Positions 1,652 through 31,071 of a DNA stretch of 32,000 bases are shown piece by piece. Numbering within the stretch: the stretch's first letter is position 1; each line of letters starts with the position of its first letter. Origin of the DNA: Candidatus Saccharimonadota bacterium (GTDB lineage Bacteria; Patescibacteriota; Gracilibacteria; BD1-5; UBA2023). The notes below the pieces were generated by a model. It saw only the letters and a list, made by a program, of their open reading frames with translations, did no database searches and was not told where the DNA came from. A program made the translations under genes and the position numbers. The stretch covers positions 1,230,001 through 1,262,000 of the forward strand of contig OY970170.1 of assembly GCA_963706795.1 (NCBI GenBank). Reading direction: 5' to 3'.

Positions 1652-1833
1652 ATGCGACTAGTTAAATATATAACTTTGATTATCCACAAAAGTCTCAAAA
1701 AGTAAACTGACATATATTTTTCGTGAGATGCAAATCAAAATTTACGTTTTGGAATTTTGAAAATGATCAAAAAACAATAGGATGCACATATCTCTATCCG
1801 ATGCTTTTTCCCACAAAAAGTCACCTCCTTCAC

Positions 1834-3715: not shown

Positions 3716-5515
3716 TTAGCTTCCTCGCTTTCCGTGGAGGAGCATTTCGAGAGCATCTTCCATGGAATCCGTTCAGATGAGATCGCCTGCATTTACAAAA
3801 AATATTCGATCGGCATTTTTGATCGTATTAAGACGGTGCGCGATAATCACCTTGGTCGTAGTAGACGGAAGGGTTTCGAGTACTTTTTCGAGGAGTTCTT
3901 CTGTGACGGTGTCGATATTAGCCGTTGCCTCATCGAGGATCAAAAGCTCAGGCTTACGAAGCACGGCGCGCATAAATGCGATAAGCTGTTTTTGACCGAG
4001 ACTGATGGATTCGCCACCGTTGGTTACAGGAGTATCTGGTCCTCATTCAAATCGCTTTAAGAGGTCTGCAAAGCCTGAATTTGCGAGAGCAGTATCGAGC
4101 TCTTCGTGTGACTTTTTAGCGTATTCTTCATTTCCATAAAAAATATTGTCGCGGACAGTTCCTGAGAAAAGAAAAGGTTCTTGGAGAATGAAGCCAATTT
4201 TTTTAGTACGCTCTTCAGTCGAATAGGTGCGAATATCGCGCCCTGAGAGACGAATCTCACCAGACGAAGCATCGTAGAGACGAGCCATAATAGAGGCGGT
4301 TGTAGTCTTCCCTCCTCCGGTTGGTCCAACGAGGGCGTAGGTTTTGCCCTTCTCAAGCACTAAGTCGATCTCATGGAGAATCGTTTTACCATTTGGGTAA
4401 TGAAATGAGACCTTCGAAAACTCAAGTAGATGATCATCATGAATCACCTTTGGCGAAGGCAATTGCGGAAGATCTGACTCCATGGAGAGTACTTCTGAAA
4501 TACGATCGAGTGATGCAAGCGAAAGCTGAAAAGACGACCAAAGTGCGGCAAGCTGCCGCAGTGGACTATAAAAATTCGTCACATAGAGCTGGAATCCGAT
4601 GAGGAGACCGACTGTGAGGTGTCCAGTTGTGATGAGATATATACCAAATGCGAGTGCAACGAGCTGCGCTAGATTGGCGGCGAGTCCATAAATCGGCAAA
4701 AAGACATTGCTCGCATTACCTGAGGCAATGGACGCTTTGTAATTACGTTCACTTGCTTCTTCAAATTTTTGCTTGAAGTAATCAAGACGATTAAATACAA
4801 CGATGACTTTAAAATTTGCGAGACTCTCTTGTATCTCGGAGCTAAGTCATCCAAGTGATCGTAGACTCTCAAGATTTTTTCGCTTCACAAATGGTGAAAT
4901 GAATTGCGTGATTATAAAGACCGCCAGTGCTGGAAGTAGCGTTACAAATCCTAGTCTCAGACTTAAAAAGAGCATAAATATACCCGTTCCAGCCATCAGA
5001 AAGACATTCCCCACAAACTGAATCAGACCCTGTGAAATAAATTGATTGAGCTTATCTGTATCATTATTAATACGCGAGATCAGATCACCCGCCTTATTTT
5101 GATGAAAGAACGAAACCGGAAGCGCTTGAAGCTTGGTAAATATCGCATTACGGAGACCAAATAGCACACGTCGCCCAACGCCACCCATGGACTTTGTCTG
5201 GAGATAACTCGCAAGACTTCCTATTACAAAGATCACAAATAGCAGCGCCGAATACAGCAGAATTCCTTGATAATCCTTGGACGATATCGCTGTATCGATA
5301 GTATGACTGATAATGATCGGTGCAACAAGGGTCGCGAGCGAACTTGTAATAACAGCAACCGTTGTAAATGCGATTACCTTACCTTCTCCAGCCAAAAACG
5401 GAGTAAATCGCTTGAGGGATTGGAGGATTGATTCTTTGGGTTTTTGGGTATCAGGACCACTAAGCTGGTAATTCGTAGGCATGGGTGCTCTGTTGTGAAT
5501 TAAAAATCTGGACAT
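3716..5515 (-). CDS. ABC exporter, fused permease + ATPase (MsbA/ABCB-like half transporter), downstream member of a pair
   Basis: Fragments 4847-5515, 4043-4699 and 3773-3973 share one frame and are joined by TGA. There is a six-helix-type TMD. Walker A is LVGPTGGGKTT. It then reads ...LKRFE-[TGA 4043-4045]-GPDTPVTNGGESISLGQKQLIAFMRAVL..LLILDEATANID..IIAHRL. The true stop is TAA 3716-3718. The alternative start ATG 5482 would shorten the overlap with the upstream gene. Confidence 0.9.
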
Positions 5516-7196
5516 ATTCTGGAGAAGTTTCCATGAGTTGTTTGTGTGTGCCTATTGCGAGTAATTCTCACTCCATTATGAGAATAATCTGTTCGTAGTC
5601 CTCTATCGTAGCAATTTTTTGGGTGATCGAAATGAGTGTGATATCTGGATAATTTTTGCGAACATTCTCAAGAATTTTGGTCTCAGTCGCAGTGTCGAGT
5701 CTGGCGGTAAAGTCATCAAGGAAGAGGATTTTTGGATCCAGAGCGAGCGCTCGCGCGAGCATGATTCGTTGCTTTTGTCCACCAGAGAGACTTGATCCTC
5801 GCTCCGAAACAACCGTGTCGAGTCATTCTGGAAGTCCGTCTATAAAATCTCGAAGTTCAGCTGTATCGATCGCTTTTTTGAGGCTCGCATCGCTCACAGT
5901 ATTACTAAAGGCGATATTTTCTCTCAGTGTCAGACTAAAGACTATACTGTCCTGAAAGACAAACCCAATCTGGTCATAAAATGACTTTTTATCAAAGGAA
6001 GTAATATCCTGACCATCAAAGTGGATCGAGCCCGAAGTTGGCGACAAGAGCCCTGTCATGAGATAGAGCAACAGGGTCTTCCCTGCTGCAGTCGGCCCAA
6101 TGATTGCGGTTTTTGAATGAGGCGCAATAGTAAAAGAAACGTCCTTGAGAGCCTTTTTTTCTCAAAATGCGAGTGTGATATTTTGTACGGCAATTTGTCC
6201 GCTGAGATCACTCACAGTCTTGCCTCGAGTTGGAGGAATTGGTGCATTTAAAACCTCAGAGATACGAGCATACGAAGCCGTTGCTTGAGCAATGACACCA
6301 CTCATAAATCCAATAAGAATGATTGGGAAAATTAAAATCGCGAGATATCCATTGAATGCCGCAAAATCTCCGAGACTCATGCTTCCTGTAATGACGAAGT
6401 GTCCACCGAGCATGAGGATCGCAAGCATCGCGATATTTGCAGTGAATGTGATCACAGGGATGAGCATCGCAAAGAGTCCCAAAATCATGAGTCCAATTTC
6501 CTTCGCTTTGCTATTTGCCGCGAGGAATTTAACGTATTCGAAGCTTTGTGAATTAAGAAGCCTGATAAGTGCAGATCCGAGAATACTCTCATTAATGATT
6601 TTATTAAGCCAGTCAACGGTTTCTTGTGAAGTCTTAAAGAGCTTGCGCACCTTGCCGAGCACGAATGAAAAAGTTACCCCGATGATTGGCACTGAGAGCA
6701 AGACCACAAGCGCTAGCTGCCAATTAATCGCTAGAAGCAAAATGCTCGAACCAATAATCAAAAATACCGAAGAAACAATCGACACAATAGCCTGTGATAC
6801 AAAGGTCTTTACAGCATCGACATCAGATGTGAGATTTGTAAGCAGTTTAGAAGGCGTAGCACGCTCGATATATGCGTAGTCCTGTTCTGCAATTTTTGCG
6901 ACAATCTGACCACGTAAATCACGCGCTACACGCTCCGAAGCAAAAGTCTGCACAAGACTCTGTCCATAGGTAAGCACAAACACAAAGAATGATATCGCAG
7001 CAAACTCTATAAGAAGCTTGTCGCTATCAAATGTACCACTCGTAAAAGCGTCGATTGCAGACGCAATAATCTTAGGAACTGCAAGATTAAGTCCATTCGC
7101 CAAAATGGTCAAAACAATAAGCCCTGCAATAATCATGGCATATGGCTTCAAAAGCCCAAAAATATTCGGACTCGGAGCTGGTACTGGTTTCGTCAT
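5460..7196 (-). CDS. ABC exporter, fused permease + ATPase, upstream member of the pair
   Basis: Fragments 6162-7196, 5823-6071 and 5568-5762 share one frame and are joined by TGA. Walker A is [12 protein letters not shown]. It then reads ...DGLPE-[TGA 5823-5825][26 protein letters not shown]..[12 protein letters not shown]. After TGA 5568 the frame continues [22 protein letters not shown]... to TAG 5460-5462. Confidence 0.9.
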
Positions 7197-7329
7197 AAAA
7201 AGAGGTGCTAACTGATCGGAAAGTATATGACAAAGAGACTAAAAGAAAATCTGGAAATTTTGAGTAAAATAATGGAAATTGGTAGATTCCATCTGTTTTT
7301 CCATACAATACGGTTTTCATGAATCTATA

Positions 7330-7986
7330 ATGACGCGCACTCTCTTGCTCACAAGAATAGGACTCAGCTGTCTTTATGGAATTGTCTTCACAATGCAAAA
7401 GAGCAGTGAATCGAGCAAAATATGAGTGATCAAACAAGGTCTCCCAGCAAAGATTCAAGAAGAATCCAGGGTGCCCACCACAGGCACGGCCGCGCTCATA
7501 ATAGAATCTGTACGCAAACAACTCGGAGTGACACTTTACTACGATGGGGCATACGCTAAGCTTGAATACCCGAATGGAGATGTACCCATGATCACCGGAG
7601 TCTGCGCTGATGTCGTCATCCGAGCTCTCCGAAGTGCACTCAAAATAGATCTCCAAAAAGACGTACATCTTGATATGGCTGCAAATTTTAGTCGCTATCC
7701 ACAGGCGTGGTGACTCAAAAAAACTGACACCAATATTGATCACCGCAGAGTCCGCAATCTCATGACCTACTTTGGTCGTCAAAAATGGAATCTAGCTGAT
7801 ACAGATTTTGCACCAGGCGATATCGTCGCATGGAGGTTGCCGGATGGACAGCGTCATATAGGAATACTCTCAGATACTATCCGCCCCGATGGCAAACCAC
7901 TCGTAATCCATAATATCGGTGGTGGTGCACAAGAGTCTGATATTATTGATTACTACACGAGAATTGGACACTGGAGGATAAAATAA
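7330..7986 (+). CDS. DUF1287 domain-containing protein with an N-terminal hydrophobic anchor
   Basis: Fragments 7426-7713 and 7762-7986 are in one frame. The joined sequence is YPNGDVPMITGVCADVVIRALR..DLQKDVHLDM..FSRYPQAW-[TGA 7711-7713]-LKKTDTNIDHRRVRNLMTYF...PGDIVAW...HIGIL...LVIHNIGGG...GHWRI. This matches the DUF1287 family pattern, including its conserved W-G-L. ATG 7330 gives an N-terminus MTRTLLLTRIGLSCLYGIVF. Confidence 0.8.
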
Positions 7987-8024
7987 AATCTCTAGCACAT
8001 TCCCGTGCTAGAGATTTTATTTTA
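7985..8024. terminator. Bidirectional terminator hairpin shared by convergent genes
   Basis: A perfect 14-bp stem, AAAATCTCTAGCAC (7985-7998) / GTGCTAGAGATTTT (8005-8018), with a 6-nt loop and T-rich flanks. It overlaps both stop codons (TAA 7984-7986 and TAA 8022-8024). Confidence 0.75.
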
Positions 8025-11000
8025 CTTCTGTATATCTTTCCCTTCCTTGATCTTGTCTACTGCAGTTTTGGATGCATCTCAGACAATTGGGGTTCGAGTT
8101 CTGGCTGAGTCTACAAGTTTTTGGTGTGCCTCGAGTTCTTTTGCAGTATTTGCTGCTGCCTTTTCTGAAGCTTTCTGCGCGATTTGCGCTTCGGCTTCTG
8201 CGGCAGTTAAGAGTTGAACTGGATGAAGCTCAGATGGAGCAGCATCAATCACTTGTACTCCATTTCGTACTTCAACGGTACGTTTTACTTTACCATTTCA
8301 ACGTATTTCATCAAATAGGTAGCTTCTGCGACCATTTATAAGTTTACCAGAAGCATCGAATGTTCCGGATTCGACCACCATTCCTGTACCAGTATCATCA
8401 CGTCGTCTTCGGATTCCATCGGTGAGATTGCCATTTACATCAAAATTTCAACGCTCTTGGAGATTGTGATTTACAGTACCGTCGTTATTTTTAGCATACC
8501 GAGTTCCAGCTTTGCCTGTGAGTCCATTTGGATGAAGCTCACCAATAAAGAGCGTGTGATTATTTTCGTAGCGCTGACTCGTTGTTGCCTCATGTGGCGA
8601 GACATTTGTTGGGGCTGGTGGCACAAAAGGGACTCCGAGGAATTCAGCATGATTCTCGGGAGGACGCGGAGAATTTTCTGGCTCGTATCTCACAAATTTT
8701 CCGTCCTTTATTGCATAGTGGGCATGTGTTCAGTTTGCATTTCGCATACTCACAAGACCATCCCAGAGGATCCCATAGTTATAATTTCCAGTTTCAAATC
8801 GTTCAAAGGTGGCGGTTCCTGATCTCGATTCACCTTCTAGGAGATTTCCTTCCTTATCAAAACGCCCCTTCTTGTAGCTCTGAGGGTTGACCGTGCCATC
8901 AGCATGTTTGTCATAGAGCGTTCATTCTTTTGGCATTCCATTTTCGTATGTTTTGCCCTCAAAATGAAATCGATCACCGATTTTTGGCTTAGAAGAAAGT
9001 CCTTCGGATTGACGTGCATATGCGTATGGTTCTGGGCCAGTACGTGCGTTTTCTGGAGTAGTATTTCGAGGTTCAGGACGACTCGCACTTGGTGCTGGTT
9101 CAGAATTTGGACGCATTTCTACAACTGCGATTCCTCCGTCAGGAGTGCGCTTTACGCCCATCATTTTATTAACACCACCGGTCGCTGTACGGAAAGCCGC
9201 CGCCATGATGAATGCTTGGGCGATTTGTTCTGGCGAATATGAGAACTTGTCATCAAAGGCAAGTTTAAACGCAAGTTGACTTCCGATGCCGGCAATATTG
9301 AGCGCGGCTCCGTCGATAATAGCTCACGTACCAAATCGTACGAGTCCATTGCCCATACGACTCACCCGCCCAAGCATGTTATTTCCAGCAAGCACTTTAG
9401 TTACACCACCCAACACTCAAGCAAAGAGGATCGAATCCCCAAGTCCACGCCATGAGTACATATTTGTATCTTCTTGTGCAGATCTTGCAGCACCGTGTCC
9501 AAGCTCAAAAGCAGCTCATTTTCCGATGAATGTATTGCCTGCTTTCATTCCGTAATTTGCGAGCTTTGCAAAACGCGTAGCCTGAAGACCAGTGGAAGCG
9601 ACATTTACAATTGCCGTACCTAGGCCGAGGGTCATCATTCCTGCAGCGAGAGCAACTGATTCAATCCCAGCCATATGCAAGAACTCTCTAAATGAGCGCG
9701 AAGAAGCATTAAATGTACCCGTTCCGAGAATCGAGGACGCCATATCGAGCTCAGAATCTTTTTCGTAGTCTCAATTCCAGTCGACATTTTGATTCAAAAA
9801 GGCTCTCAGATATGCAATGCGGAATGCCTCATCGAGACCCCGCTGCATATGGACTGATTCTGCTTTGTTTAGAAGCTCGCTTTCGGGTTTTGGATCATTT
9901 GTCTGCGCCTTGTATGCACGAACATATGATGCGCCATTCGCCACCCAATCTTGTTGGAGCGCCTTTTTGACGGACTCCATCTCTTGGCGGATTTCTTTTG
10001 AAGCCTTTGCCTGATCTGCGACATTGAGAGGCTTCGCAAAAGGAATCGTCTCGCCGAGTTCGATCTTGGAGATGAGCGACTCTGCATTGGTGATATTCTT
10101 TGTATGACTTCGTGCGATCTGTGAAACTACGAGATCATATTGCCCGATACTGTCTTTGATGAGTTTATAGAGTGTAGCGCGTCGCTGTACGGGATTTTTG
10201 TCATTAGAAAATGCTGACATCCAGTGCCAAACAACTCATTTGTCTGGCTCAAGAATATATGTAATTTTCTTGGCAAATTCGTTGATATCACCTCATTTTA
10301 TAACGTATTCGTCCACGAGTTTCCAGGCCTTAAGCGCTTGGGATTGCTTATTTTGGTACTGTGCGCTGTATGCCTCAAGAAAAATCGCCATATCATCAGC
10401 CCAGCCAATTCGACTTTTTTGCTCTGGAGAAATCTGAGCTTCGGCTCACTGTTTTGCAGCATCTACATAATTTGCATGCCAGATAACTTTTTCGGTACCA
10501 TTCTCACCAATGAGATAATATGCACCATCTCGCACAACCATACCGATTGCAGGAGCACCGAGAACTTTGAGTGCCTCAGACTGTGTAGCTGGCGCGCTCT
10601 TAAGTGGAGCAGCAGGAGCCTTTTTTGGTACTGAAGCCTGAGGTACAGATGGAGTAGCATCTACCTTTGGTGCAGGCTTTGCAAGAACAGCAGGAATAGA
10701 AACAGGTTTTTGCTCAATTTTTTGAGCATCCTGCGAAGCAGGCTTTGCAACCGAAGTTGGTGTAGGAGCAGGAGTTGGAGCTTTAGGAGTAGCAACTACA
10801 TGGGGAGGAACAGAGGCAACTGGCGCACTCTTTTGCGCTTTTGTTTGATCAACATTAGAAGTCTTAGGTTTTTCTCCGGCCTGCTTTTTGAGGACTTCAA
10901 CGAGGCTCCCAAAAGTTTCGGGTCCAGGAATGCCATCTACTCGGATTTCTTCTGCAATCTGAAATTCTTTAATCGCGTGCGTGGTTTCAGTTCCCATCAT

Positions 11001-11252
11001 CCCATCAATTCCATGCTCAGGGAGTTTGTAACCAAGAGTCACCAGCGTCTTTTGGATAATAAGGACCACTGCAGCGCTATCTTTAGGAGAATCTGGACGA
11101 TGAAAAGGCTGATTTTTATACTCAGCGAGCTTTGTAAGCAAAAACTCATTGGTGAAGCCTTGGATAGCTTCTTTTACGTCCTGATCTTTTTCGAGATTGA
11201 GACCGGTTTTTACCTGCTCTTTGACCCAGTTTGGGCTGTGCTCAATAGACAT
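8022..11252 (-). CDS. Large (1076 aa) multidomain envelope protein: N-terminal peptidoglycan-binding domain, Pro/Ala/Lys-rich linker, Gly-rich hydrophobic central region, C-terminal MORN/YwqK-like repeats
   Basis: Track fragments ending at 11252, 10220, 9743, 9206 and 8693 are all in the same frame. They are linked by 12 in-frame TGAs (10446, 10293, 10236, 9771, 9516, 9417, 9324, 8922, 8730, 8448, 8298, 8079), and the stop is TAA 8022-8024. A PG_binding_1-like stretch reads AVVLIIQKTLVTLGYKLPEHGIDGMMGTETTHAIKEFQ..RVDGIPGPETF. The linker reads KPKTSNVDQTKAQKSAPVASVPP...PKKAPAAP. The central segment is GIESVALAAGMMTLGLGTAIVNVASTG...GVLGGVTKVLAG...GAIIDGAALNIAGIGS. The C-terminus has repeated G-x-x-x-x-x-[YF]-x-x-x-G-x-[LV] units, for example GKTYENGMPKEGTLYDKHADGTV and GRFDKEGNLLEG. 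Confidence 0.75.
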
Positions 11253-15804: not shown

Positions 15805-16224
15805 ATGAAAAAATTATATACAGGCTTATTGTTCTTTGTGTTGCCATTCTTTGCGTTTGCAGAGACGACGGGTCATATAAGCGACCTCTCAAAGATATAC
15901 GAAAACACAAGCATTACCTTGCTGAGCGCACTTGCAGTCAGTTTTGTGATCATCACTCTACTCATGCCTGCAATTGTTGGCGGTATCGTGGCAGCAATAA
16001 GCACGTATCTTCTTCTAGTACCAACCATGGCCGGTGGAATCGTTGCCGTACTGGTTATACTTGTATTTTTTATGGGCTGGGGAATCGCCTGGTTGATCCG
16101 AAACATGATCAAGCCAAGTAGCTATTCTGGCTCGGATTCTGATGGAAGTATTGACGCTTGCAGTGCTTGGGGATTCAACTCAGGTGACTCTTGGGGAAAC
16201 GACTCCAGCGGAGGTATCGATTGA
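15805..16224 (+). CDS. Small membrane protein (139 aa as listed) with signal peptide, two or three TM helices and a Ser/Gly/Asp-rich tail; 3' end ambiguous (TGA)
   Basis: A strong Shine-Dalgarno GGGAGG (15794-15799) lies 5 nt before ATG 15805. The sequence is MKKLYTGLLFFVLPFFAFA..., with hydrophobic spans LSALAVSFVIITLLMPAIVGGIVAAISTYLLLV and MAGGIVAVLVILVFFMGWGIAWLI. It ends at TGA 16222-16224, 27 nt before the terminator stem. Under strict table 25 the frame runs to TAG 16894-16896. Confidence 0.7.
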   Translation: MKKLYTGLLFFVLPFFAFAETTGHISDLSKIYENTSITLLSALAVSFVIITLLMPAIVGGIVAAISTYLLLVPTMAGGIVAVLVILVFFMGWGIAWLIRNMIKPSSYSGSDSDGSIDACSAWGFNSGDSWGNDSSGGID

Positions 16225-16251
16225 ATGAACTTACAGAAAGGAGAAATCAAA

Positions 16252-16281
16252 AACAGAAGGTGAAAACCTTCTGTTTTTTTG
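16252..16281. terminator. Bidirectional rho-independent terminator
   Basis: AACAGAAGG tgaaaa CCTTCTGTT followed by TTTTTTT on the plus strand. On the minus strand the same stem is followed by TTTTT. It lies between convergent genes. Confidence 0.8.
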
Positions 16282-16295
16282 TGATACGATATTGC

Positions 16296-16874
16296 CTATT
16301 CAGCTTTTTTTCACTGTGCTCGTGCGATAGCATCCATGGCCTGATTATGGCTATTTTGGAGAATGTTTTCGAGTTTTTGATGAGTTTGTTCTTCGCGCTC
16401 TAAAGCAAACTTTTCATACGCTGCATACATATGCGAAATAAAGGCATGTACCACAACACGAGCCTGATCAGGAGCGAGCTTTGCTCGACCAAGGGCATCA
16501 GTATTATTCAAAATCGCGCCCATTACATGTGACATATGAATAGGGAGCGCCAAATTTTGATGCGTGACCATTGCTCGAATAAGACCATTCATATGCTCAT
16601 TCTCAAAGAAACCAAGAACTGTCTCTCTGTCTAAAGCATCTTTTTTACTTCTTCCATTCCCAGGAAGCATTGGGTATCTTGCTCCCGCAATAAATGCCTT
16701 CTTTTCGGCTGCAAATACTGTGGCGATGTTTTCTTTGAGATTGTTTTCAATCTCGGCGAGAGCCATTGCTTCGTTACCATGAAGATCCGGAGTCTGTGAT
16801 GCTGACATATTATCAGGGTTATTGGACGATATCCTCAAGTTTAGCACAAGAGAGATATGGACGCAAAAAAACAC
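16296..16874 (-). CDS. Hypothetical protein, last gene of the zinc-cluster operon
   Basis: Track ORF 16311-16874 continues past TGA 16311 for four codons (KKAE) to TAG 16296-16298. The start is GTG 16874 (9 nt after the COG0523 stop) or ATG 16808 (MSASQTPDLHG...). No motif recognised. Confidence 0.6.
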
Positions 16875-16883
16875 TAATATACC

Positions 16884-18404
16884 CTACGCGAGATAGTTCT
16901 CCCACTTCGCAATTCGGCCATCAGTTTCAAAATATTCAAATTCTGCCCATTTGGACATTACTTCCTTATCCATGGAGAGTTTTACAATGGCTCCGTCAGA
17001 CTGGAGTAATTCATCGATAGTTTTTGTGGCACATGAAGGATCGAAGAGATCAATCCCATGTTTCTCCAAAAGAATTTTTACAAGGAAATCGAGCCGCTTA
17101 TGACAGATATATGTTGGGCTTTTTGAATGCTCTCTGAGCTCGGCTACGGTCTCAACTTTTTTTGGAGTTCTCGCATATGCACGACGCTTGTATTCGAGCC
17201 AGCTGTAGGGATCTGGATATTTCATGGATTCACCGAGCGCTTTTTGTTCCGCCTGGATACGAGCAATTTCGAGCCAAGAAGCATCAGAAGCCCCATCCTG
17301 AAAGCGTGATTGAATCATTGATATTTTTGCGTCCATAGCCATATACGCGTGATACTGACTCACAAGCTTATCTACGCGCTCCTCGGATAATGCCACAAAT
17401 GCCTCAATAGTATCTGGAATCATAGGAGAAGAAATTGATTGGATTGTGTGTGTAATTGAATGGTCACTCACTTGCTCAAAAATGAGTATTTGCGAAGGCG
17501 TCATGGGGCTCACAGTTATAATATTGAGATATGGAGCCACGCTTGTGTGCTTGGAATAGACGAAACTTCCGTGAACAAAATCAAATTCGGTTTGCCCGAT
17601 TACACCTTTTGCACGCATGACATTTGTTCCAAGAGACGCGATGGCCAGATCAAGATCCTGCCGAGAAAAATTCGCATGCAACTCAAAGCTTCTCGTGAAT
17701 ACTGGCGCCTTTTTTGTAGCTGATCTGGTATTCATATGTGAGGTCGGAGCAGATGCACTTCTCAAAAAACTCGGCTTTGATTCGGGCTTTTTAGGGAGAT
17801 GATCGAGTAGTCACAAAAGGGATTCGTAATCCTGCTCATGTGGATGTGATTCGAAGGATTCTTGACTCGATCAATCGATCTTTCTGAGTTGTACGATCGG
17901 AGCAGATGGAGCGAGTCGACCTATCCATTGCAGAACATTGTCCGAATTCCCCTCAGTCCACGTGAGTCCGACGATATCCGCAGTCCTCATCTGAGTATCC
18001 ATCACCACTCTCTCCGCCTCAGAACGAAGTGGAAAATGCTCGACATCCGAGAGCACAATCGTCGTCACACGAAACCCAGTTCGCTTCATAAGAGCAAGAA
18101 TGGCAGGTCATTCGGCAATTCCACTCGGCTCAACAATCAGGAGTTCTGAGGAACCCTTCGCTTGATGCAGGGCATTGGAGAGAGATTCCATGTCTTCGCA
18201 GCAGATACACCCCTCGGTGAGCGCGGTCACGTCAGCATCACTCAAACGAGCCGCATCGATATTAATTGATCCAACGTCATTGACGATAATTTTGGTTTTC
18301 TGCTTAAATCGCGAAAGCATCCATCGGATTAGTGACGTTTTTCATGATCCAAGTGGCCCAAGGACCAATAGGGCTCGCGAAGTATCGGGACTGTGCATTG
18401 TCAT
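16884..18404 (-). CDS. COG0523-family (CobW/ZigA/YeiR-like) G3E GTPase metallochaperone with an approx. 190-aa C-terminal extension
   Basis: Fragments 18108-18320, 17871-18089 and 16884-17765 share one frame. ATG 18404 gives MTMHSPDTSRALLVLGPLGS-[TGA 18342-18344]-KTSLI (Walker A). It continues IIVNDVGSINID, the GCICCE (CxCC) metal motif, LLIVEPSGIAE (Walker B-like), and a CobW_C-like NVMRAKGVIGQTEFDFVHGSF. Stop is TAG 16884-16886. Confidence 0.85.
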
Positions 18405-18409
18405 ATCCA

Positions 18410-19228
18410 CTACAGTGATCAAAGAATACAAGAATTCACAACACCAGACGGTGGATTACAATACATCACTTCTGCGTATCCATCCGGAAGCCACGAAGTT
18501 TGCATCTCCGGATAGAGAAATGTTCTGTAACCGAATGCTGTACGAAACAATACGGTCTGTCCTGACCTACTCGAATCCAAGATAGATTGAGCAATTATTC
18601 GTTTTGTCACTGCATCACATCCCGCAAGTGCAGCAACAAAAATACAGTCGTACTCTCCATAGCCAGAGAATTTTTCGGCTGACCCATGGAGAATTCCAAC
18701 ATTCTCTGCGAGCCCTATTCGGCTGATGAGCAGACGAGAGAGCTCACAGGCATTTTCATTGCTATCAAGACAATCAACCCCTTCTATAAATGCATCCTGC
18801 ATTAATATTGGAGAGAGTGGCAGTGGTCCTGATCCCACAAAAAGCGCCCTACGTGCAGAACCGAGCCCACGTTCTTTTCGGTACTGATGGATCAATGATA
18901 TTTCCCATGTACTGAGCAACCGATAATTTTGCATATACGGAAATATCTCAAGATCTTTGAGACTCAAAGGGTCTTTATTTTTAAGAAGCAAATTTGCCCA
19001 ATGATGCTCGAGAAGGGATTCTCACTCTGAGCACAGAGACTGCATTTTGGAGCGCAATGAGCGAGTCGGGATATCCCAAAAAAGCTCAGAAATATCCCCG
19101 TCATGCCCCATAACCGTCTCTACCAAACGCGAGAATTCACCATTTACCGTCGGCGAAGGATGAAGCGAATCCTCCCGTGAAAGCCGATCATATATCGTCT
19201 GAATTACTTCAATACTACTATGCGTCAT
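18410..19228 (-). CDS. Nicotianamine synthase-like (NAS/CntL family) SAM-dependent aminobutyryl transferase
   Basis: Fragments 19022-19228 and 18419-18991 share one frame. The joined sequence aligns block by block with the NAS family: LCSE-[TGA 19022-19024]-ESLLEHHW, EIFPYMQNYRLL, ALFVGSGPLPLS, YDCIFVAALAG, LFRTAFGYRTFLYPE, GVVNSCIL. After TGA 18419 come two codons, then TAG 18410-18412. Confidence 0.9.
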
Positions 19229-19631
19229 GCCCCGCTTTTGTTACACAAGAAGGACAATTTCCCACATGCGTCTCACGATGGGATTCTAGGATATTTCCTG
19301 CACTATTTTTGAAGTGCTCATCACTAATACTCCCACATCCATGACAGTGAGTGAGTTCAAAATGCCTCGATGGTTCTCGACCATTTCGGATCTCTGCACA
19401 GAGTACAAATGACTCCACGCCATGCTCATAGAGAGCATGGATAAGTCCCGCATCCCGAAAATCAGAAATACCTCGATAGAGCGTCGCAAGATTTGCACCT
19501 GTACGAGATATGTAAGCTTCTTTGAGCGAATCAAAGTCGCACGCATTCTGCTCAGATAAAATCTCAAGCAACGCCACTCGCGACTTCGTTGCACGACATC
19601 AGACAGAATGAATAATTGAGGAATGGTCCAT
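19218..19631 (-). CDS. Fur-family metalloregulator, probably Zur
   Basis: ATG 19631 gives MDHSSIIHSV-[TGA 19599-19601]-CRATKSRVALLEILSEQ...ATLYRGISDFRDAGLI (winged helix). The C-terminus has two CxxC pairs (HCHGCG ... NCPSC) typical of the structural Zn site. Stop is TAG 19218-19220, overlapping the NAS start by 11 nt. The Zur assignment rests on gene context. Confidence 0.75.
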
Positions 19632-19677
19632 GAGACAGCATTAAAAATGATCCTCACTATATGCGGATTTATTTTAT

Positions 19678-19725
19678 TGCAAAAATTTGCATTAAAATCT
19701 CAGTTATTCAATGAATTATGAATAA
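19678..19725. promoter_or_regulatory. Two AT-rich palindromes in the divergent promoter region; candidate Zur/Fur operators
   Basis: TGCAAA-aa-TTTGCA (19678-19691) is a perfect 6-2-6 inverted repeat. TTATTCA-atgaatta-TGAATAA (19704-19725) is a perfect 7-8-7 inverted repeat that contains the nested ATTCA-a-TGAAT. They lie 47-94 nt upstream of the regulator ATG (19631) and 56-103 nt upstream of ATG 19781. Confidence 0.4.
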
Positions 19726-23526: not shown

Positions 23527-26500
23527 CTATTTTGAAAGCTCTTGAGCTAATAATTCGCTCTGTTCAATCACACGATCAGCCTCAATCTTTGCGAGGTCTG
23601 GTGGATACCCATAGCGCATGAGCACTTTTTTTACCGTGAGACGAAGTTGAGCGCGAACATCATCACGTTTGTTCCAGTCGACTGTAGCATTCTTTCGAAT
23701 GATATCTACGATCATATGGATCAATTCCTTCATCTTATGATCCTCCAGAAATTCTGTCGATGTGTTCTGCGAAAGTATAGAATAAAATGCATATTCTTCG
23801 GGGGTGAGACCAATCTCCTTTGCTCGCATATCCTCAATCCTCATATCGCGTGCAATCTGTGAAAGTTCCTCGATAATCTGTGCTGTATCGAGTTGATTGT
23901 TATGGTAACGCTTAATCACATTTCCAAGCATTTCAGAGAACTTTTTCCCTTGAGCAACATTCTTTTGTTTGCGAACCTTCACCTCCTCAGTGAGAAGTTT
24001 TTTAAGGAGTTCAAAAGCAAGATTTTTGTGCTCCATGTTTTTCACTTCTAATAGAAATTCCTCTGACAGAATCTCAAGTGAAGGAGCTTTGATTCCTGCT
24101 GCTTCAAAAATATCTACCACTCAATCCGAAGACAAAGCTTCTTCGACAATCTGTCGGATCGCCGTATTTACCTCTGCATCACTTTTTCAACCAGTAGGTG
24201 AGAATTTATTGATTCGTGATTTAATAGCCTGAAAGAAGGCAATATGATCCTTGATTTGTTCCGCCGCAACACTCGGTACAGCCATTACAAAGAGTTTTGA
24301 AAGCGCAGACACTTCAGCGAGGAATCGATTCTGTGTATCTTCACTTCGAAGGATGAAGTTTTGTGCAGCGAGCAACACATGAAGCTTCTTTCAGGTTTCA
24401 GCAGTGAAATACGACTGATAATCGAATCCGTGAAACATCTGAGAAACAATCTCGAATTTTGTTCGCATCCCAGCTATTACCTCCGCAATATCCAATACTG
24501 CTTGCCCCTGTCACCCATTGTCCGTATACGTCGACATCGCATTTCGCAGATCTTGTCCGATACCGATATAATCAACAATCAATCATCCTGGCTTATCTTT
24601 GTAAACGCGGTTCACACGTGCAATTGCCTGCATAAGGTTTGCACCTTCCATTTTCTTGTCGATGTACATCGTATGGAGCGACGGTGCGTCAAATCCTGTC
24701 AGCCACATGGACTGTACGATCACGAGTTGCAGGGAATCATTCGGATCTTTGAGCCTAAGGGCTAATGCCTTGCGCTCATCCTTGGTAGTGTGATGTGGCT
24801 GGAAATCTTCAGGATCATCTGTTGAGCTCGTCATCACGATCTTCAAGAAACCCTTCGTAAGATCCTGATCATGCCATTCAGGTCTGAGTTTCACAATCTC
24901 AGTATATAGGTTCACTGCGATCTGTCGTGTCATACACACGATCATCCCCTTTCCTTCGAAGATAGCCTGACGCGCTTCAAAGTGATCAACGATATCCTTC
25001 GCAATATCCCTCAATCTATCTGGATGCCCCACGATACTATCGATCTGTGCATTGCGTTTTTTTGCTTTCTCTTTCTGCTCAGGTGTTGCATCTTCGATCT
25101 CATCGATCGCTATATCGATCTGAGCAACAGCCGCATCGTTCATCTTGATCTTCACAAGTCGACTCTCATAACTAATCGGCACAGTTGCGCCATCTTGAAC
25201 CGCCTGTGCGATATCGTAGATATCCACATATCCACCAAATACTGCAGGTGTAGACTTATCTTCCTTCTCGATCGGAGTACCCGTGAATCCTATGAAAGAA
25301 GCCTGAGGAAGCGCATCTCTCATATACTTTGCATTCCCGTACTTGATCTCGCCATCAAGATCAACCTTTCCCGTGAAACCATACTGACTTCGATGCGCCT
25401 CATCTGCAACCACTACAACGTTTGAACGATCCGTAAGAACCTCGAAAGAATTCTGCCCATCTTCAGGATAGAATTTCTGAATTGTCGTGAAAATAATCCC
25501 ACCACCTGATACTTTGAGAAGCTCCTTCAAATGCGCACGATTATTCGCCTGGACTGGTTTTTGTCGCAGGAGGGAGACACAGTTCCCAAATGTTTGAAAT
25601 AGCTGTTCATCGAGATCATTACGATCCGTGAGTATCACGATCGTAGGATTCTTCATCGCAGGTTCTACAACGAGTCTTCCAGCATAGAAGACCATGGAGA
25701 GTGACTTCCCAGATCATTGAGTATGCCACACAACCCCAATCTTCTTGTCACCATCTTCTGCAGTGGCACGCAAGGTTTCCTTCACTGCCTTCTCCATCGC
25801 GTAATACTGATGATACGCAGCAACTTTTTTGATCTTGATTACAGAGAGCACTCCCGTTTCTTTATTCTTTACTTCTTCAGCTTCAAATACTGTATTGTAT
25901 CTGATCAATTCGAGCAGAGTTTTCTTCTCGAACATTCGCTCCGCCAAGATCTGAAGCTCAGGCAATACCCCATTTTCCTTCTTCTCAGGTGATTTCCACA
26001 CGAGATAACGTGAGAACGGTGCAGAGACACTCGACACTCGTGCATCGAGCCCGTCAGAGATCACGCAAAGTGCATTGTAATAGAACACAGAAGGAACCGC
26101 CTTCTTGTAGTTCTGAATCTGTGTGAAAGCTCGCTCCAATGTAGCATCCTCATCCATTGTATTCTTGAGCTCAACCACGACAAGTGGGAGTCAATTCACA
26201 AACAACACAACATCCAGTCGCTTTTCATTGTTATTTTCCTTTACTACGAACTGATTCACCACACAGAAGTGGTTATTCTCTGGATTCACAAAATCCACCA
26301 AGTTCACACTCACCCCCTTCGACTGCCCATCCGTGAAATACTCCACCACTACCCCATCCGTTAACATCTGATGAAATACCTCGTTGTTCATCATTAGATC
26401 ATCCGAATCAAAGCGACGAATCTTTGAAAGTGCTTCGATTCGAGCAGATTCTGGGATGTGAGGATTGAGACGGTCGATAGATGTAGTTAGTACCGTATCT

Positions 26501-26640
26501 AAAATAACGCCGTCAAAACTCGAACGCATAGGGGTTGAGCTGTATGGAGAGATATCTGGACCATAGAAATACTCGTAGCCCTGAGATTTGAGGAGATCTA
26601 CGAGGTTTTGTTCGATGGAAGATTCGGTAAGGTGGGGCAT
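23527..26640 (-). CDS. hsdR: Type I restriction enzyme R subunit (1037 aa)
   Basis: Five track fragments (ends 26640, 26178, 25695, 24378, 24120) lie in one frame, joined by seven TGAs (26191, 25714, 24583, 24511, 24391, 24187, 24121). Motifs are VLFVN-[TGA]-LPLVVVELK, VVWHTQ-[TGA][12 protein letters not shown] (helicase motif I), [13 protein letters not shown] (DEAH), [18 protein letters not shown], and KPG-[TGA]-LIVDYIGI. The helical C-terminal region is typical of HsdR. Stop is TAG 23527-23529. Confidence 0.95.
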
Positions 26641-26644
26641 AGAC

Positions 26645-27196
26645 TTATATATGAAGTTCTTGAGGTAAGAATCTATTTATTTCATTATCTGACCAAGTAA
26701 ATTCTTCATCTCTATTCTGTTTTCATAACAAAGATAACTGAGCCTCAGTGTAATCAGTATATGTTGTTTGTGAGGATAGTCAGACAATAATTTGATACTG
26801 TTCCTGATATAAATCTCTTCTTCAAATCGTTTCATCTTCGCTCAAACCACCTATAATATCAACTATAAAGTTTTTATATTTATCTCTCAAGTTTAGAAAT
26901 TGCAGTGCAATTTTTTTAAACTCCTGTGCTCTTTGTTCTATAGAAAATTCTTTCTGGAGGAATAAGAAAATTATCTCAGAAACCGTTAATGCAACAGATA
27001 CACCTCCAAAAATATTACTGTCTGGAAATTTAATCTGTAAAATAAGGAATACTAGAATCAAGAAAACATCAATGATGTTTACCCACTTAATCAATCATTG
27101 AACTTTTTCTAGTCTATCACACGCTTTTTCATAAACCTTGTGATTAAAGACGCATTGAGCAAATTGCTGTCTTACCACTGAAAGATTTCTATTCAT
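26645..27196 (-). CDS. SLATT-like two-transmembrane effector protein (183 aa)
   Basis: ATG 27196 lies 11 nt after the nucleotidyltransferase stop. The N-terminal helix is MNRNLSVVRQQFAQCVFNHKVYEKACDRLEKVQ. Two hydrophobic helices follow (WVNIIDVFLILVFLILQI and IFGGVSVALTVSEIIFLFL), then a helical tail EQRAQEFKKIALQFLNLRDKYKNFIVDI. There are four in-frame TGAs (27095, 26822, 26780, 26723). Stop is TAA 26645-26647, 4 nt before the hsdR ATG. The architecture and the neighbouring gene fit the SLATT family. The family call is an inference. Confidence 0.55.
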
Positions 27197-27207
27197 ATTT
27201 TAGAAGA

Positions 27208-28086
27208 TTATCATGTAAATTTTGATCAAAATATTTCCCTCCATTTTTGATTAGCAGAATATTCCTTTGCCTCCGATTCATACTGCATAGCCTCTATCGC
27301 TAAGTTATATGCCAATTTTGCCTTGTACTCAAACTTTCATCCCCTCCATACGTACTGACCACTTCAAGGTGCAAGCCAGTAAGATTTATCCTCATCCTGT
27401 TCTTTAAGGAATTTAAAGAAATCCCTTACCATCCAATCATAATACAAATAAGATTTATCCTTTTGCGCCCAATTCTTCATAAAATGATAGCATAATGTAT
27501 CAATCAAAAGCCCTCACATTGGTACATTCCAATAATCTTTCCATACCCTAGTAATTCTGCATAGTCTTTTTAAATTAAAATTCCAGTCTTCATTCTTCTC
27601 CCTAATTTCCTTAATCTCAGGTTTTGGATTTGTCTTCTTCCAAGAACCTCAATCGTTTGAATCAGGAAAAGTATAACTATCGTCAGTTTTAATAAAGGCA
27701 GGTACTATTTCAAAACAGATTCAATCATTCCAGTTGATTCAAATAACTTGTCCATCCCCTTTTATATGTGTTGTAGGATATGTTTTCTGTAATGATGATC
27801 TAATTGCTTGCAACAATGCAGACTGTCAGTTTCCAGTATAATTGTTATACGTTTCATACAGTGAATCTGGAAGTTGAAAAATTACATCAATGTCACTTAC
27901 ATGTATGTCTGTATCTCTACCATAAGATCATACGTATAGACTATGGCTATATTCTGATTCTGTGGACCAAAAATCTTTATTTAATCTCTTTGTGATAGAT
28001 CTATAGCGTACTGAAATCGTATCTATATTATCAATATCGATACGAATATTATCGCAGAAATTTTCAAATTTAGTTGTAATAGACAT
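27208..28086 (-). CDS. SMODS / CD-NTase-like nucleotidyltransferase (292 aa), candidate second-messenger synthase
   Basis: There is no ORF in the track. The minus frame from ATG 28086 to TAA 27208-27210 has ten in-frame TGAs and no TAA or TAG. The translation contains HSLYV-[TGA 27928-27930]-SYGRDTDIHVSDIDVIFQLP, the pol-beta-fold G-S ... D-x-D motif. It continues GDGQVIGINWNDGICFEIVPAFIKTDDSYTFPDSNDGGSWKKTNPKPE, which supplies the third acidic residue on the strand ending in VP and the W-x-x-TNP block. This is the pattern of SMODS/CBASS cyclases. Confidence 0.75.
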
Positions 28087-28099
28087 AGATTAACAAGAA

Positions 28100-29332
28100 C
28101 TAAATTAAAGATGGTAAAATTTCTCCGCTCATCAACCTTGGCAATAGCTCATCGCGAGTTCTCGAGAGCAATGCTACTTGAGCTAAGTTATTATAGATTT
28201 TTCGAAAAATTGGCTTAACTTTCTCATCAAATCCCCTTACTCTCTCAATATTTGGAACAAGCACCTCAAGTTCTTTTATCATGGTCGAATTAATCGCTGT
28301 GACTATCGATGAAGTACTTCATAGTGAGTTGAAATCCAGTTTCTGAAGATAGCAATATATAAATTCGGTACTCAATGCAGAGTTGCCCTTGATTTTCAGG
28401 TGAGCAATTGCTTCATTTGAGAGCATCTCTTCGGTGGTAATCGTTAGTTTACCGACAGTCATTTTGAAACTCAATATCGTTGTATTGATAGGAATTACTG
28501 AGATATTGAATTTCTTAATTGCCTCATCTATCAGATATTCTGAAGTTTCAAAAATATATGTTTTACTATTTCCGATATCCTTTATAGAAATCCACTTTTT
28601 CCCTGTTGGAGATTTTGAAAACCACTCCGGTTGAATACGAGGAGGAGTTCTTCAGATTGTAATATCAAACTCCGTCCCTAATTTTCCTACTCTCCAACCC
28701 TCCGGCAACTCATCATCTACGCCATACTTCCCAAATAACTCCTGAAAAATTGTCTGCGCAGTTTTCTCAAGTGTCTCATTTTGCTCTCGAAGAAGTTCGA
28801 TCTTATCATCGAAACTTGAAAGTATTTGAGCGATTGCTTGTTGTTCAGGGAGAGAAGGAAGAAGAATAGGATATTCAGTAATTTGTCTCTGGCTTATATG
28901 CGGGATAGATGTTCCAGTATGAACCTTTGCTACATAGGATTCAAAATTCTTATTTAGAATGAGATGTGCTATGAAATGCTGATCTGAGATTCATGGTTTC
29001 CTTCTTAAACATGCTACTCGCTGAGCCAATATTAGTGGCAGTTCTTTTTCTTGAACCATAGACCTATTTTTTCCAACCTTTGATCCATCCATTCAAATTA
29101 CTATGTCATCTTTTTGTAAGAAACACTTTTCCAATCCATCCGTAGAATGATTCCAATACTTCACAATATCCCATCTAAGAAATCATTCCGAGACATTTTC
29201 TCATCTTACGACTCTCAAATTTCAATTCGAATCATATAAATTTCACTTGAATGATTCTCACGTAAAAATATCCACAACCTTCCCCAAAGTCGTCTCCATC
29301 CACCCTTCAGGAATCATTTTTTCATTTCTCAT
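28100..29332 (-). CDS. hsdS: Type I restriction-modification specificity subunit (410 aa)
   Basis: ATG 29332. There are nine in-frame TGAs. Two target-recognition halves are each introduced by P-E-G-W (MIPEGWMETTLGKVVDIFTG and ELPEGWRVGKLGTEFDITIG). The conserved central helix is LPSLPEQQAIAQILSSFDDKIELLREQNETLEKTAQTIF, and the C-terminal one is LLSRTRDELLPRLMSGEI. Stop is TAG 28100-28102. Confidence 0.9.
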
Positions 29333-29333
29333 A

Positions 29334-29804
29334 CTACTTTTGAGGATTACTCATTTGATTAAGTACGCTATCCACCGCCTTTCATGGTAAGTTTATATCT
29401 CCTGTGTTAGTTCATGGAGTGTTTACTTTCTCAGCAATGTTCTCATAATCTGGCGTAACTTTATAATTTCCTCGATTACTCCTATAAAGCTTCCAATTCT
29501 GTGCCCATTCAATCGCAGTATCTCGGAAACTTTTGTCTATCTTACCGTAATTTACAAGTGTCTCTGAGCCTCAAAATCAGATAGTCATAAATGTTACGAG
29601 ATAGGCCACAGTAATCACCCCGACTTTGTTCTTAAACCATTCAACTTTTGTAGTCAGAAGATATGTCAGAAAAACGAGCAAACAAGCGATTCCGATTGCT
29701 ATAAGCCAGAAGATGATCGTGAATACCGCATAAATAATCACCGCGAGGATTACAATTCCTATCACTCATTGTTCTACGAATCTTTCTTTTCATTTTCGAC
29801 CCAT
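29334..29804 (-). CDS. Small membrane protein (156 aa) with 2-3 TM helices and a soluble C-terminal tail, unknown function
   Basis: The frame of track ORF 29577-29765 extends to ATG 29804 and through TGAs to TAG 29334-29336, which is 1 nt before the hsdS ATG. The hydrophobic core is VIGIVILAVIIYAVFTIIFWLIAIGIACLLVFLTYLL ... VGVITVAYLVTFMTI. Confidence 0.6.
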
Positions 29805-29848
29805 ACTACTTTTGGTTATCAGACAAAGGTTTATGCACTTCAAATAAT

Positions 29849-30985
29849 TTATTTCTCCAGGATATCAAAATAAGACCTAAATACGAAGAGTCGATTTCTT
29901 TTGTTGCCAGTGATTTCCACAAGTATGCCAAGCTTCACAAAATCTTGTATGAGATCGTTTGTCGCTTTTGGGGAGAGATCTGTAATCAATTGCACGTTTC
30001 GCGAAGATACGATGGGCTTCTCGAAAAGTTTCTCAAGCAAGGTATGTGCGCTTTGCATCTTCCTTCCAAGAGTGGGAAGTGAATTTTTGGTATGATAGTC
30101 TTTCAGATCTAGGACTGCCTTGAGCGAAAGCGTTGCTTCATTTGCAGTTTGTTCCACTCACTCAAGGAAGAAAAGCACCCAAGAGAGAAGATCGTTTTTC
30201 TCTCTAACCCAGGTGAGCTTGTCGTAGTAGAGGGATTTGTTCTTTTCGAAGAAATCAGATACATACAAGAGTGGTCTATGGAGTATACCGTTACTTACTA
30301 GATAGAGCGGTATCATGAGTCTCCCAGTTCTGCCGTTCCCATCGAGAAATGGGTGTATAGTCTCGAACTGATAGTGAGCTATGGCAATCTTTATGAGATG
30401 AGGAAGTCACACGGCGTCATTATGGAGGAATTTCTCTAGATCAGACATGAGATCACTTACGTGTTCTTGACTCGGGGGTATAAATTTTGCATCAGACAGA
30501 CCCGCACCGCCAATCCAATTTTGACTCGTTCTGAATTCTCAGGGACTCTTATCCCTTCCTCGCACATGAGAGAGAAGGATCTTGTGGATTGATTTAATCA
30601 AGCGGTTTGAGAGTGGGATATTCTCAAGTTCTTCGATAGCAAAATTGAGAGATTCACGATATTGAATAGTTTCCCTCCAGTCATCCCGTTTTTCTGGTTG
30701 GATATCTCATTCATCAGAAAAAGCCTCTTCAATATTGGTTTTTGTTCCCTCTATTCGGCTTGATGTGACCGCTTCCTTCATGACATATGATTGAAGGAAA
30801 AGTTCGATATTTGGGACAAATTTTGAAAAGGAATTGAGCTCACCAAGCTTAAATGATGCGGATTCAAGTTTCTTCTGAAGAAGAGGATGTGAAAAAGTCC
30901 ATTCATGATTTATGGTTTCAGGAAGGAAGTACTTATACTGATAAGCATTTCTCCAAACTCCAGATGTAAAGGTCTCGATCTGCAT
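29849..30985 (-). CDS. Fic-family protein (AMPylase-type; 378 aa)
   Basis: Fragments 30707-30985 and 29849-30157 are in one frame, with four in-frame TGAs. The N-terminal block is [15 protein letters not shown]. The Fic motif [12 protein letters not shown] lies at 30355-30320. The C-terminal wHTH-like region is [25 protein letters not shown]. Stop is TAA 29849-29851. Confidence 0.9.
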
Positions 30986-31025
30986 AGAAGTAAATTATAT
31001 ATTTCTATAATTTAGTTTATCAGTT

Positions 31026-31059
31026 AAAAGTAAAATTACAATATCCATATTTTACTTTT
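31026..31059. other. AT-rich perfect hairpin in the hsdM-fic spacer
   Basis: AAAAGTAAAAT (31026-31036) pairs with ATTTTACTTTT (31049-31059) across a 12-nt loop. The stem is entirely A/T apart from one G:C pair. Its role is unknown; it could be an attenuator, a processing site or a binding site. Confidence 0.3.
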
Positions 31060-31071
31060 GAACGTTATCCA

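Follow-up and report, generated by a model that had tools for sequence, protein, structure and literature searches.

Nicotianamine is an intracellular metal chelator in plants and fungi. Related enzymes of the nicotianamine synthase (NAS) family occur in the bacterial Cnt systems that make staphylopine, pseudopaline, yersinopine and bacillopaline, where a NAS-family aminobutyryl transferase is under metal-responsive control. The archaeal thermonicotianamine synthase MtNAS (PDB 3FPE) is a short enzyme of the core-NAS type and lacks an opine dehydrogenase partner. The COG0523 metallochaperones (ZNG1, ZigA, ZagA/YciC, YeiR and CobW) share a G3E P-loop domain, a CxCC motif and linkage to Fur-family regulators. 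We could observe features of all these systems in a single operon (16296-19631, minus strand) of a Candidatus Saccharimonadota bacterium. The operon lies on a 32,000-nt stretch of contig OY970170.1 that we refer to as the window, and it encodes a Fur-family regulator, a NAS-like enzyme, a COG0523 GTPase fused to a conserved domain that we call X, and a fourth protein.

We lean towards reading this locus as a derepressible metal-starvation operon, one instance of a module of candidate phyla radiation (CPR) bacteria and DPANN archaea that combines a NAS-made chelator with a COG0523 metallochaperone and X. When metal is plentiful, the Fur-family repressor would bind a TGCAA-N4-TTGCA operator over the -35 box and keep its own operon off; when metal is scarce, the operon would be expressed. 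NAS would join 3-amino-3-carboxypropyl units from S-adenosylmethionine (SAM) into a nicotianamine-type chelator. The GTPase, whose family membership is observed directly, would handle the metal at its CxCC site. Domain X, whose association with the other two is observed directly, would be the third obligate partner and link, within the cell, the making of the chelator to the passing on of the metal.

Gene structure, NAS-like enzyme and module

Read with translation table 11, the region is a patchwork of short open reading frames (ORFs), while reading TGA as a sense codon yields four intact, co-directional ORFs on the minus strand. TGA encodes glycine (code 25), because it stands at codon 21 of the GTPase gene, the position of an invariant glycine in the Walker A motif (GPLGS*KT), and at codon 69 of the NAS gene, which aligns with the glycine of LCSEGE in three of five homologues. 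The regulator gene (19218-19631, 137 aa, one in-frame TGA) matches Pfam FUR and the NAS gene (18410-19228, 272 aa, two in-frame TGA codons) matches Pfam NAS. The fusion gene (16884-18404, TGA again read as sense) consists of a COG0523 part (aa 1-324, 17433-18404), assigned by Pfam cobW and a motif alignment, and of domain X (aa 325-506 and the stop codon, 16884-17432), assigned with a profile from an alignment termed A3. The fourth gene (16296-16808, 170 aa), recognized by its codon usage, is the last in the operon. It is followed by an intrinsic terminator (16249-16278, minus strand; 13-bp stem, 4-nt loop, T run) that is symmetric and hence possibly bidirectional.

An earlier sequence-only reading of the window had described a recoded four-gene operon with a possible zincophore pathway. 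Its observation of the operon is confirmed, with intact ORFs when TGA is read as glycine, and its interpretation is supported in part. The 11-nt overlap of the regulator and NAS genes and the 5-nt gap between the NAS and GTPase genes agree with the coordinates. The reported 9-nt gap to the fourth gene requires GTG 16874 as start; the codon-usage score of 16809-16883 (-0.30) favours ATG 16808, which leaves a gap of 75 nt. Fragments of the window proteins are present in a public protein collection, all from a single contig, and with code 25 this points to a small-genome bacterium of the Gracilibacteria or Absconditabacteria.

The NAS-like protein matches the Pfam NAS family (PF03059) with 146.2 bits (cut-off 27.1) over model positions 9-268 of 276, and the family motifs it had been credited with were all found (GSGPLPL, FVAALAG, FLYP and VVNS). 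The glycine-rich SAM-binding motif FVGSGPLPL is invariant throughout alignment A1, which comprises the window enzyme and five homologues. A profile of A1 scores MtNAS at 100 bits versus 47 bits for Staphylococcus aureus CntL. A catalytic glutamate and tyrosine have been shown to be essential in MtNAS (E81/Y107) and AtNAS1 (E77/Y106) (PMC10248798), and in the A1 profile alignment MtNAS E81 and Y107 correspond to window E74 and Y102. For AtNAS1, E73 and the insertion 206-VGMD-209 near the reaction chamber are both required for nicotianamine formation (PMC10248798). The window enzyme carries E70 and a four-residue insertion, A202-G-C-D205 (AGCD), in which the G and D of an xGxD pattern are retained; MtNAS has a glycine at the position equivalent to E70 and a gap at the insertion site. 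The correspondence between window and AtNAS1 numbering is presumed.

The fold agrees with this assignment. We modelled the TGA-free fragment aa 70-269 with AlphaFold (AF2; predicted local distance difference test score, pLDDT, 89), and Foldseek returned MtNAS as the best match (template modelling score, TM, 0.76; E = 3.7e-12), with CntL at TM 0.56-0.59. The Rossmann-like fold of the fragment is consistent with the superposition on MtNAS. The family score, the catalytic residues and the fold are thus all intact, and the comparison with MtNAS and CntL indicated no other methyltransferase subfamily. Since the SAM-binding and catalytic residues are kept and the NAS subfamily is confirmed, neither of the two findings that the sequence-only reading had named as contrary to its assignment, a loss of such residues or a different subfamily, was made.

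MtNAS is the closest solved relative of the window enzyme and shares its catalytic residues. In comparison with MtNAS, the window enzyme has E70 and the xGxD insertion in addition and shares its operon with COG0523 and X. With plant and fungal NAS (classes I-III, including AtNAS1) it has in common the full-length Pfam match and presumed equivalents of E73, E77, Y106 and, in AGCD, of the VGMD insertion. Its identity to homologue P0005, called plant-like from sequence alone, is about 31%. What sets it apart from the plant enzymes is its bacterial origin, its control by a Fur-family regulator and its partnership with a GTPase and X. From its family, fold and residues we infer that the product is a polyaminocarboxylate chelator of the nicotianamine type. 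As had been suggested, nicotianamine, thermonicotianamine or a similar product is likelier than an opine, and an opine that depends on CntM is unlikely. The module would be a candidate for the synthesis of true nicotianamine in bacteria. The neighbour-joining tree that we built from 88 NAS sequences was star-like, so no conclusion on the clade status of the module-linked NAS was drawn from it.

The arrangement is not confined to one genome; the same module is widespread in CPR and DPANN genomes. We scanned GTDB, represented by one genome per species, with the NAS profile. The best matches (28-37% identity) came from metagenome-assembled genomes (MAGs) labelled Saccharibacteria, Paceibacteria and Peribacteria and from a Woesearchaeota archaeon; others belonged to unclassified small genomes, including an 'uncultured bacterium', and to three MAGs labelled Gammaproteobacteria. 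In 12 GTDB loci NAS adjoins both COG0523 and X, either in the order Fur (divergent)-long COG0523-NAS-X or as NAS-COG0523-X. The NAS loci of Sorangium, Jiangella, Actinomycetospora, Nocardioides and Paenibacillus are without COG0523 and X partners.

A search of metagenomes with X as the seed gave 80 loci, of which those informative for a given feature were counted. COG0523 was next to or fused with X in 58 of 59 loci, NAS lay within 2.5 kb of X in 50 of 51, and a Fur-family gene was present in 38 of 41. These counts agree with the phylogenetically broad GTDB set. Contigs of the Saccharibacteria type carry FUR followed by NAS, cobW, X and TerC, with a second cobW close by. This type includes an X member named as TM7 oral taxon 353, and part of the contigs bear the label human oral metagenome, an environment in which host nutritional immunity restricts zinc and other metals. 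Judged by gene linkage, NAS, COG0523 and X form a conserved module of CPR bacteria and one DPANN archaeon. The module also appears to be undescribed: among the papers covered by our literature search, none places nicotianamine synthase in one operon with COG0523/CobW or connects it to CPR, Saccharibacteria or Patescibacteria (PMC11794875 deals with AzeJ, a member of a different family).

The three proteins also occur as fusions. COG0523::X fusions are found in the window, in P0132 and P0170 and, judged by length, probably in about twenty more proteins; NAS::X is found in P0165 and NAS::cobW in locus L087. Fusion in all three pairwise combinations is a classic signature of proteins that act together physically, and the products of the module probably form one complex. 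In two further loci, a long COG0523 form and NAS make up a single 861-aa ORF under code 25 (L017, 1352-3937; L018, 8186-10771), the code having been chosen since TGA as sense greatly lengthens the ORFs. Despite this apparent recoding, the two loci carry the labels Paceibacteria (L018) and Saccharibacteria (L017), perhaps wrongly.

The COG0523 part matches Pfam cobW with 82.7 bits across aa 12-156. It contains the Walker A motif (G16-T23, GPLGSGKT), the CxCC motif (C66-I-C-C69) and the ExSG motif (E92-G95, VEPSG). The CxCC motif between switch I and Walker B is the defining metal-binding motif of COG0523 (PMC10642216), and together with the cobW domain it bears out the family assignment made earlier. 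Pfam CobW_C gave no match at E <= 0.1, and aa ~245-320 align with the RAKG-containing region of relatives. Long COG0523 forms of relatives have His-rich linkers like those of known COG0523 metallochaperones and, in place of X, a second conserved C-terminal domain of about 230 aa, termed Y, with the motifs ITHPE...SRRP.V.DEWFP. Seven loci carry Y and the His-rich linker (L002, L011, L017, L018, L021, L060 and L067); neither Y nor a YibE/F homologue was found in the window. A kinship of X with Y was rejected (hhalign probability 0.1%). Compared with known COG0523 proteins, the window protein has lost the NKxD motif and carries X, and its fixed genomic partner is a chelator synthase in place of a known metalloenzyme client. 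The module would provide a genomic partner for a COG0523 subfamily without known clients.

Regulator, operator and metal

The window regulator matches Pfam FUR with 27.1 bits (cut-off 23.1). Both of its CxxC pairs (C96/C99 and C126/C129), which form the structural zinc site, are invariant in alignment A4 of eight module-linked regulators, the window protein included. The profile of A4 scores solved proteins of different subfamilies alike (Fur 99, FurB/Zur 93, PerR 89.5, Nur 87 and ScZur 86 bits), so that assignment to one of these subfamilies by sequence was given up.

Upstream of the operon we found an operator-like palindrome of 28 bp, ATTTTAATGCAAA-TT-TTTGCAATAAAAT (19671-19698), with arms of 13 nt each that are 92% complementary and the core TGCAA-N4-TTGCA at 19678-19691. 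It overlaps the -35 box of a promoter-like site on the minus strand (19656-19683; -35 TTTGCA, 16-nt spacer, -10 TATAGT), which is a pattern match from a consensus scan. The pattern TGCAA-N4-5-TTGCA has a single match in the window, where 0.17 were expected; since 17 of 100 shuffled sequences also matched, this lone match is weak by itself. The pattern immediately precedes the module in 11 of 15 GTDB loci, versus three matches in 66 other loci (~1.25 Mb). When up to two mismatches are allowed and the GC cores retained, the operator is found close to the start of NAS in 44 of 51 metagenome loci, 34 of which have a perfect TTGCAACAAATTTGCAA, and perfect TTGCAA-N5-TTGCAA copies are present in L024 and L067. 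In L085, at 9689-9703, and likewise in L086 and L087, a second perfect box (TTGCAA-CGTTG-TTGCAA) follows just past TerC, about 600 nt upstream of the second cobW, which hints at a small regulon.

The published Nur box has the form tTGCaa-N5-ttGCAA, and this 6-5-6 arrangement differs from that of Fur, Zur and Per boxes, which are spaced by a single base (PMC2691836). As with the Nur box of Streptomyces coelicolor, the TTGCAA-N5-TTGCAA form in the module stands upstream of metal-homeostasis genes and beside a Fur-family gene; the window copy differs in its spacer of 4 nt. The regulator had been called Zur-like. We cannot uphold this, as it is no closer to Zur than to Fur, PerR or Nur and its operator is of the 6-4/5-6 and not of the n-1-n Zur form. 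The operator form matches the Nur (nickel) box of Streptomyces and not the Zur box. A Nur-type 6-5-6 operator thus appears to be in use far outside Actinobacteria.

The operator is also the main argument for a system that senses and handles nickel, or cobalt, with a regulator that is functionally Nur-like. The G3E GTPases moreover include the nickel chaperones HypB and UreG (PMC10642216). We nevertheless consider a nickel or cobalt system unlikely. For the module regulators, the score against solved Nur (3EYY) does not exceed those against Fur, Zur and PerR. No HxH pair like His70/His72 of Nur, whose Ni-site histidines are His70, His72 and His126, was evident in the window regulator or in the oral-type regulators when these were judged by eye, without an alignment. 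To our knowledge, nickel enzymes are not expected in most genomes as reduced as these. Finally, where the clients of CxCC-type COG0523 proteins are known, the metal handled is mostly zinc (PMC10642216). By this family precedent zinc is more likely the metal, with nickel or cobalt as possible alternatives.

Domain X and the site of chelator action

The sequence-only reading had noted an extension of the GTPase. The extension is indeed present, but it is a separate conserved domain family that elsewhere is free-standing or fused otherwise. Neither Pfam nor NCBIfam has a model that matches the C-terminal 180 residues of the fusion, and a tblastn search with this part against the loci fetched with the NAS profile uncovered a separate conserved protein elsewhere. 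X measures about 170 aa (free-standing homologues 150-200 aa, with ~120-170 aligned residues). The profile of A3, which has the window X as its first row, matches aa 340-505 at 159 bits, and the identity of the window X to the remaining 59 members of A3 is 24-34%. The family comprises 244 proteins in a collection of 5.8 billion proteins, none of them with a Pfam domain, and an exhaustive profile search found 192 clusters among 1.84 billion cluster representatives. The invariant residues include, in the numbering of the fusion protein, W402, Y405, K406, H426, C434, R437, W486, E490, K500 and W501.

An AlphaFold2 model of X based on a 60-sequence alignment is all-helical with a short C-terminal hairpin (pLDDT 95.6; predicted TM score 0.89). 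Foldseek found no significant relative of this model in the PDB (best E = 2.3, TM <= 0.32) and none in BFVD (best E = 1.5), so that X is a confidently modelled protein family without a structural relative. Given its co-occurrence, its fusions and its conserved residues, X most likely binds the NAS product or the metal complex of this product. In one locus (L021, 10773-11303), an ORF opens with an N-terminus typical of X (MKHSQSPQTKGKLNTLLRQYAEYN) and goes on as a Fur-family protein; recombination or a chimeric assembly may have produced it.

It has also to be considered that X acts as a tailoring enzyme on what NAS makes, a stand-in for CntM or nicotianamine aminotransferase that would give a new chelator. 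Its invariant His, Cys, Arg, Glu, two Lys and several Tyr and Trp residues would suit an active site of this kind, and X is fused to small-molecule enzymes in some relatives (X::class I SAM-methyltransferase in P0133 and P0135, class I/II aminotransferase::X in P0230). Fusions with the GTPase are more frequent, however. The Pfam helical domain of octopine dehydrogenase (CntM) matched only 1 of 12 members, with E = 0.097 and thus far from the threshold, and we dropped this identity because Foldseek with the pLDDT-95.6 model finds nothing in the PDB or BFVD, neither CntM nor any other solved enzyme. With roughly 120-170 aligned residues, X is helical and shows no recognizable nucleotide-binding fold. 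We regard a tailoring role of X as distinctly unlikely.

The zincophore of the sequence-only reading would be a chelator that is secreted and taken up again, as in the staphylopine and pseudopaline systems. In line with that reading's own remark that CntM and CntK are absent, neither was among the window proteins scanned. We found no CntM-type opine dehydrogenase (Octopine_DH) in the operon, among the window proteins scanned or among the neighbours examined in related loci. The operon and the window proteins scanned likewise contain no histidine racemase, NikA-type or Cnt ABC importer or MFS/EamA exporter, and no Cnt tailoring or transport gene is a conserved neighbour in related module loci. 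Because CntM, CntK and a Cnt-type transporter are missing from the window, the operon does not represent a Cnt-type opine system; it also lacks a CntABCDF-type importer or exporter, and CntL is the more distant relative of its enzyme (47 bits, TM about 0.57). The only transporters of the window are two adjacent ABC exporter half-transporters (ABC_membrane + ABC_tran; 3716-7238, minus strand), about 10 kb off and unlinked to the operon.

For a classical secreted metallophore, the tailoring and transport genes would thus have to reside elsewhere in the genome. Bacterial NAS-family enzymes are known from Cnt systems, a distant NAS homologue (P0002, in L001) sits in a typical metallophore cluster with Fur, an SBP_bac_5 binding protein, permeases and an MFS exporter, and the module is linked to membrane proteins in relatives. 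But no metallophore importer or exporter is linked to the operon in the window, the enzyme is nearer to MtNAS than to CntL both by sequence and by structure, and the fixed partners in the module are cytoplasmic. A secreted zincophore is therefore improbable, and the chelator probably acts inside the cell. As a last alternative, the NAS-like enzyme could modify a macromolecule (for example Lys or Cys of X) with aminocarboxypropyl or make an unrelated SAM-derived product, a highly improbable scenario, as the tight complex suggested by the three pairwise fusions, the invariant Lys and Cys of X and the one COG0523-X locus with a pyridoxal phosphate enzyme where NAS would be are countered by the retention of all small-molecule NAS residues, including those specific to nicotianamine formers, and by the lack of any precedent for protein modification in the NAS family.

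Several observations weigh against the metal-starvation operon that we favour. The window regulator is the most divergent member of its group and has lost most of the His run, and the spacer of the window operator is 4 nt (6-4-6) instead of 5 nt. The metagenome counts are not independent, because many loci come from near-identical strains. In L088 (6472-9755) a long cobW is followed by a class I/II aminotransferase::X fusion and NAS was not detected in the 17.7-kb locus; here the COG0523-X pair apparently teams with a different enzyme. The argument for a ligand-binding role of X consists of co-occurrence, fusions and conserved Lys, Arg, His, Cys, Glu and aromatic residues, and that for an intracellular role consists of the missing Cnt-type transporters. 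Membrane proteins linked to the module in relatives (YibE/F with a His-rich tail, TerC, ArsP_1 + DUF1980) could move the chelator or the metal; neighbours of these types are absent from the window. The papers found on DUF1980, TIGR03943 and YcgQ do not, judged by title and abstract, deal with function.

The GTPase adds a further difficulty. It lacks the NKxD motif for guanine specificity and has T148-W-T-E151 (17950-17961) instead, while the motif alignment shows NKTD, TKPD or TKTD in unfused relatives and SKVS in one paralogue. The loss of NKxD makes the nucleotide use of the window protein uncertain, and the nucleotide preference of the fused forms may have changed. P0170, another COG0523::X fusion that looks recoded, is likewise degenerate at this site.

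A more far-reaching version of the metal-starvation reading is tentative, and we would rather doubt than assert it. According to this version, NAS, COG0523 and X form a three-protein machine found almost only in ultra-small symbionts, in which the GTPase delivers metal with a nicotianamine-type chelator as its cofactor inside the cell, under a Fur-family sensor and a Nur-type operator. If true, this would be a small-molecule-assisted metallochaperone mechanism of a kind that no COG0523 protein has so far been reported to use. CPR bacteria and DPANN archaea are generally credited with little metabolite synthesis, yet many retain a chelator synthase that consumes SAM, together with a metallochaperone and X, which suggests that metal supply may be a central constraint of episymbiosis.

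Fourth gene and remaining window

The fourth gene, which had been named as a possible source of new chemistry, is real by codon usage (score +0.35 in frame, every other frame negative) and lies inside the operon, but it is a lineage orphan outside the conserved module. Its only match among 5.8 billion proteins is itself, and it has no Pfam or NCBIfam match. A kinship with domain Y of the long COG0523 forms was rejected (hhalign probability 0.1%). By its distribution, the gene would be a lineage-specific addition.

We also considered a plus-strand ORF (15805-16896) as the true gene in its place; codon usage speaks against it. The segment 15805-16224 of this ORF has a signal-peptide-like start and transmembrane segments, and a TGA (16222-16224) stands just before the symmetric terminator. 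Under code 25 the ORF meets no TAA or TAG before 16896 and runs antisense across the entire fourth gene. If the ORF is a gene at all, its transcript would end before a stop codon is reached.

A defence island occupies 23527-31998 on the minus strand. It contains the type I restriction-modification genes HsdR (23527-26640), HsdS (28100-29332) and HsdM (31072-31998, cut by the window end), among which a SLATT_4 effector (26645-27196), a SMODS nucleotide-signal synthase (27208-28086) and a Fic/DOC protein (29849-30985) are inserted. The plus strand encodes a GGDEF diguanylate cyclase (1801-3228) and a DUF1287 protein (7330-7986). On the minus strand we found a 1076-aa protein with a peptidoglycan-binding domain (8022-11252) and, by inspection only, a large secreted protein with repeated units of about 90 aa (2-1651).

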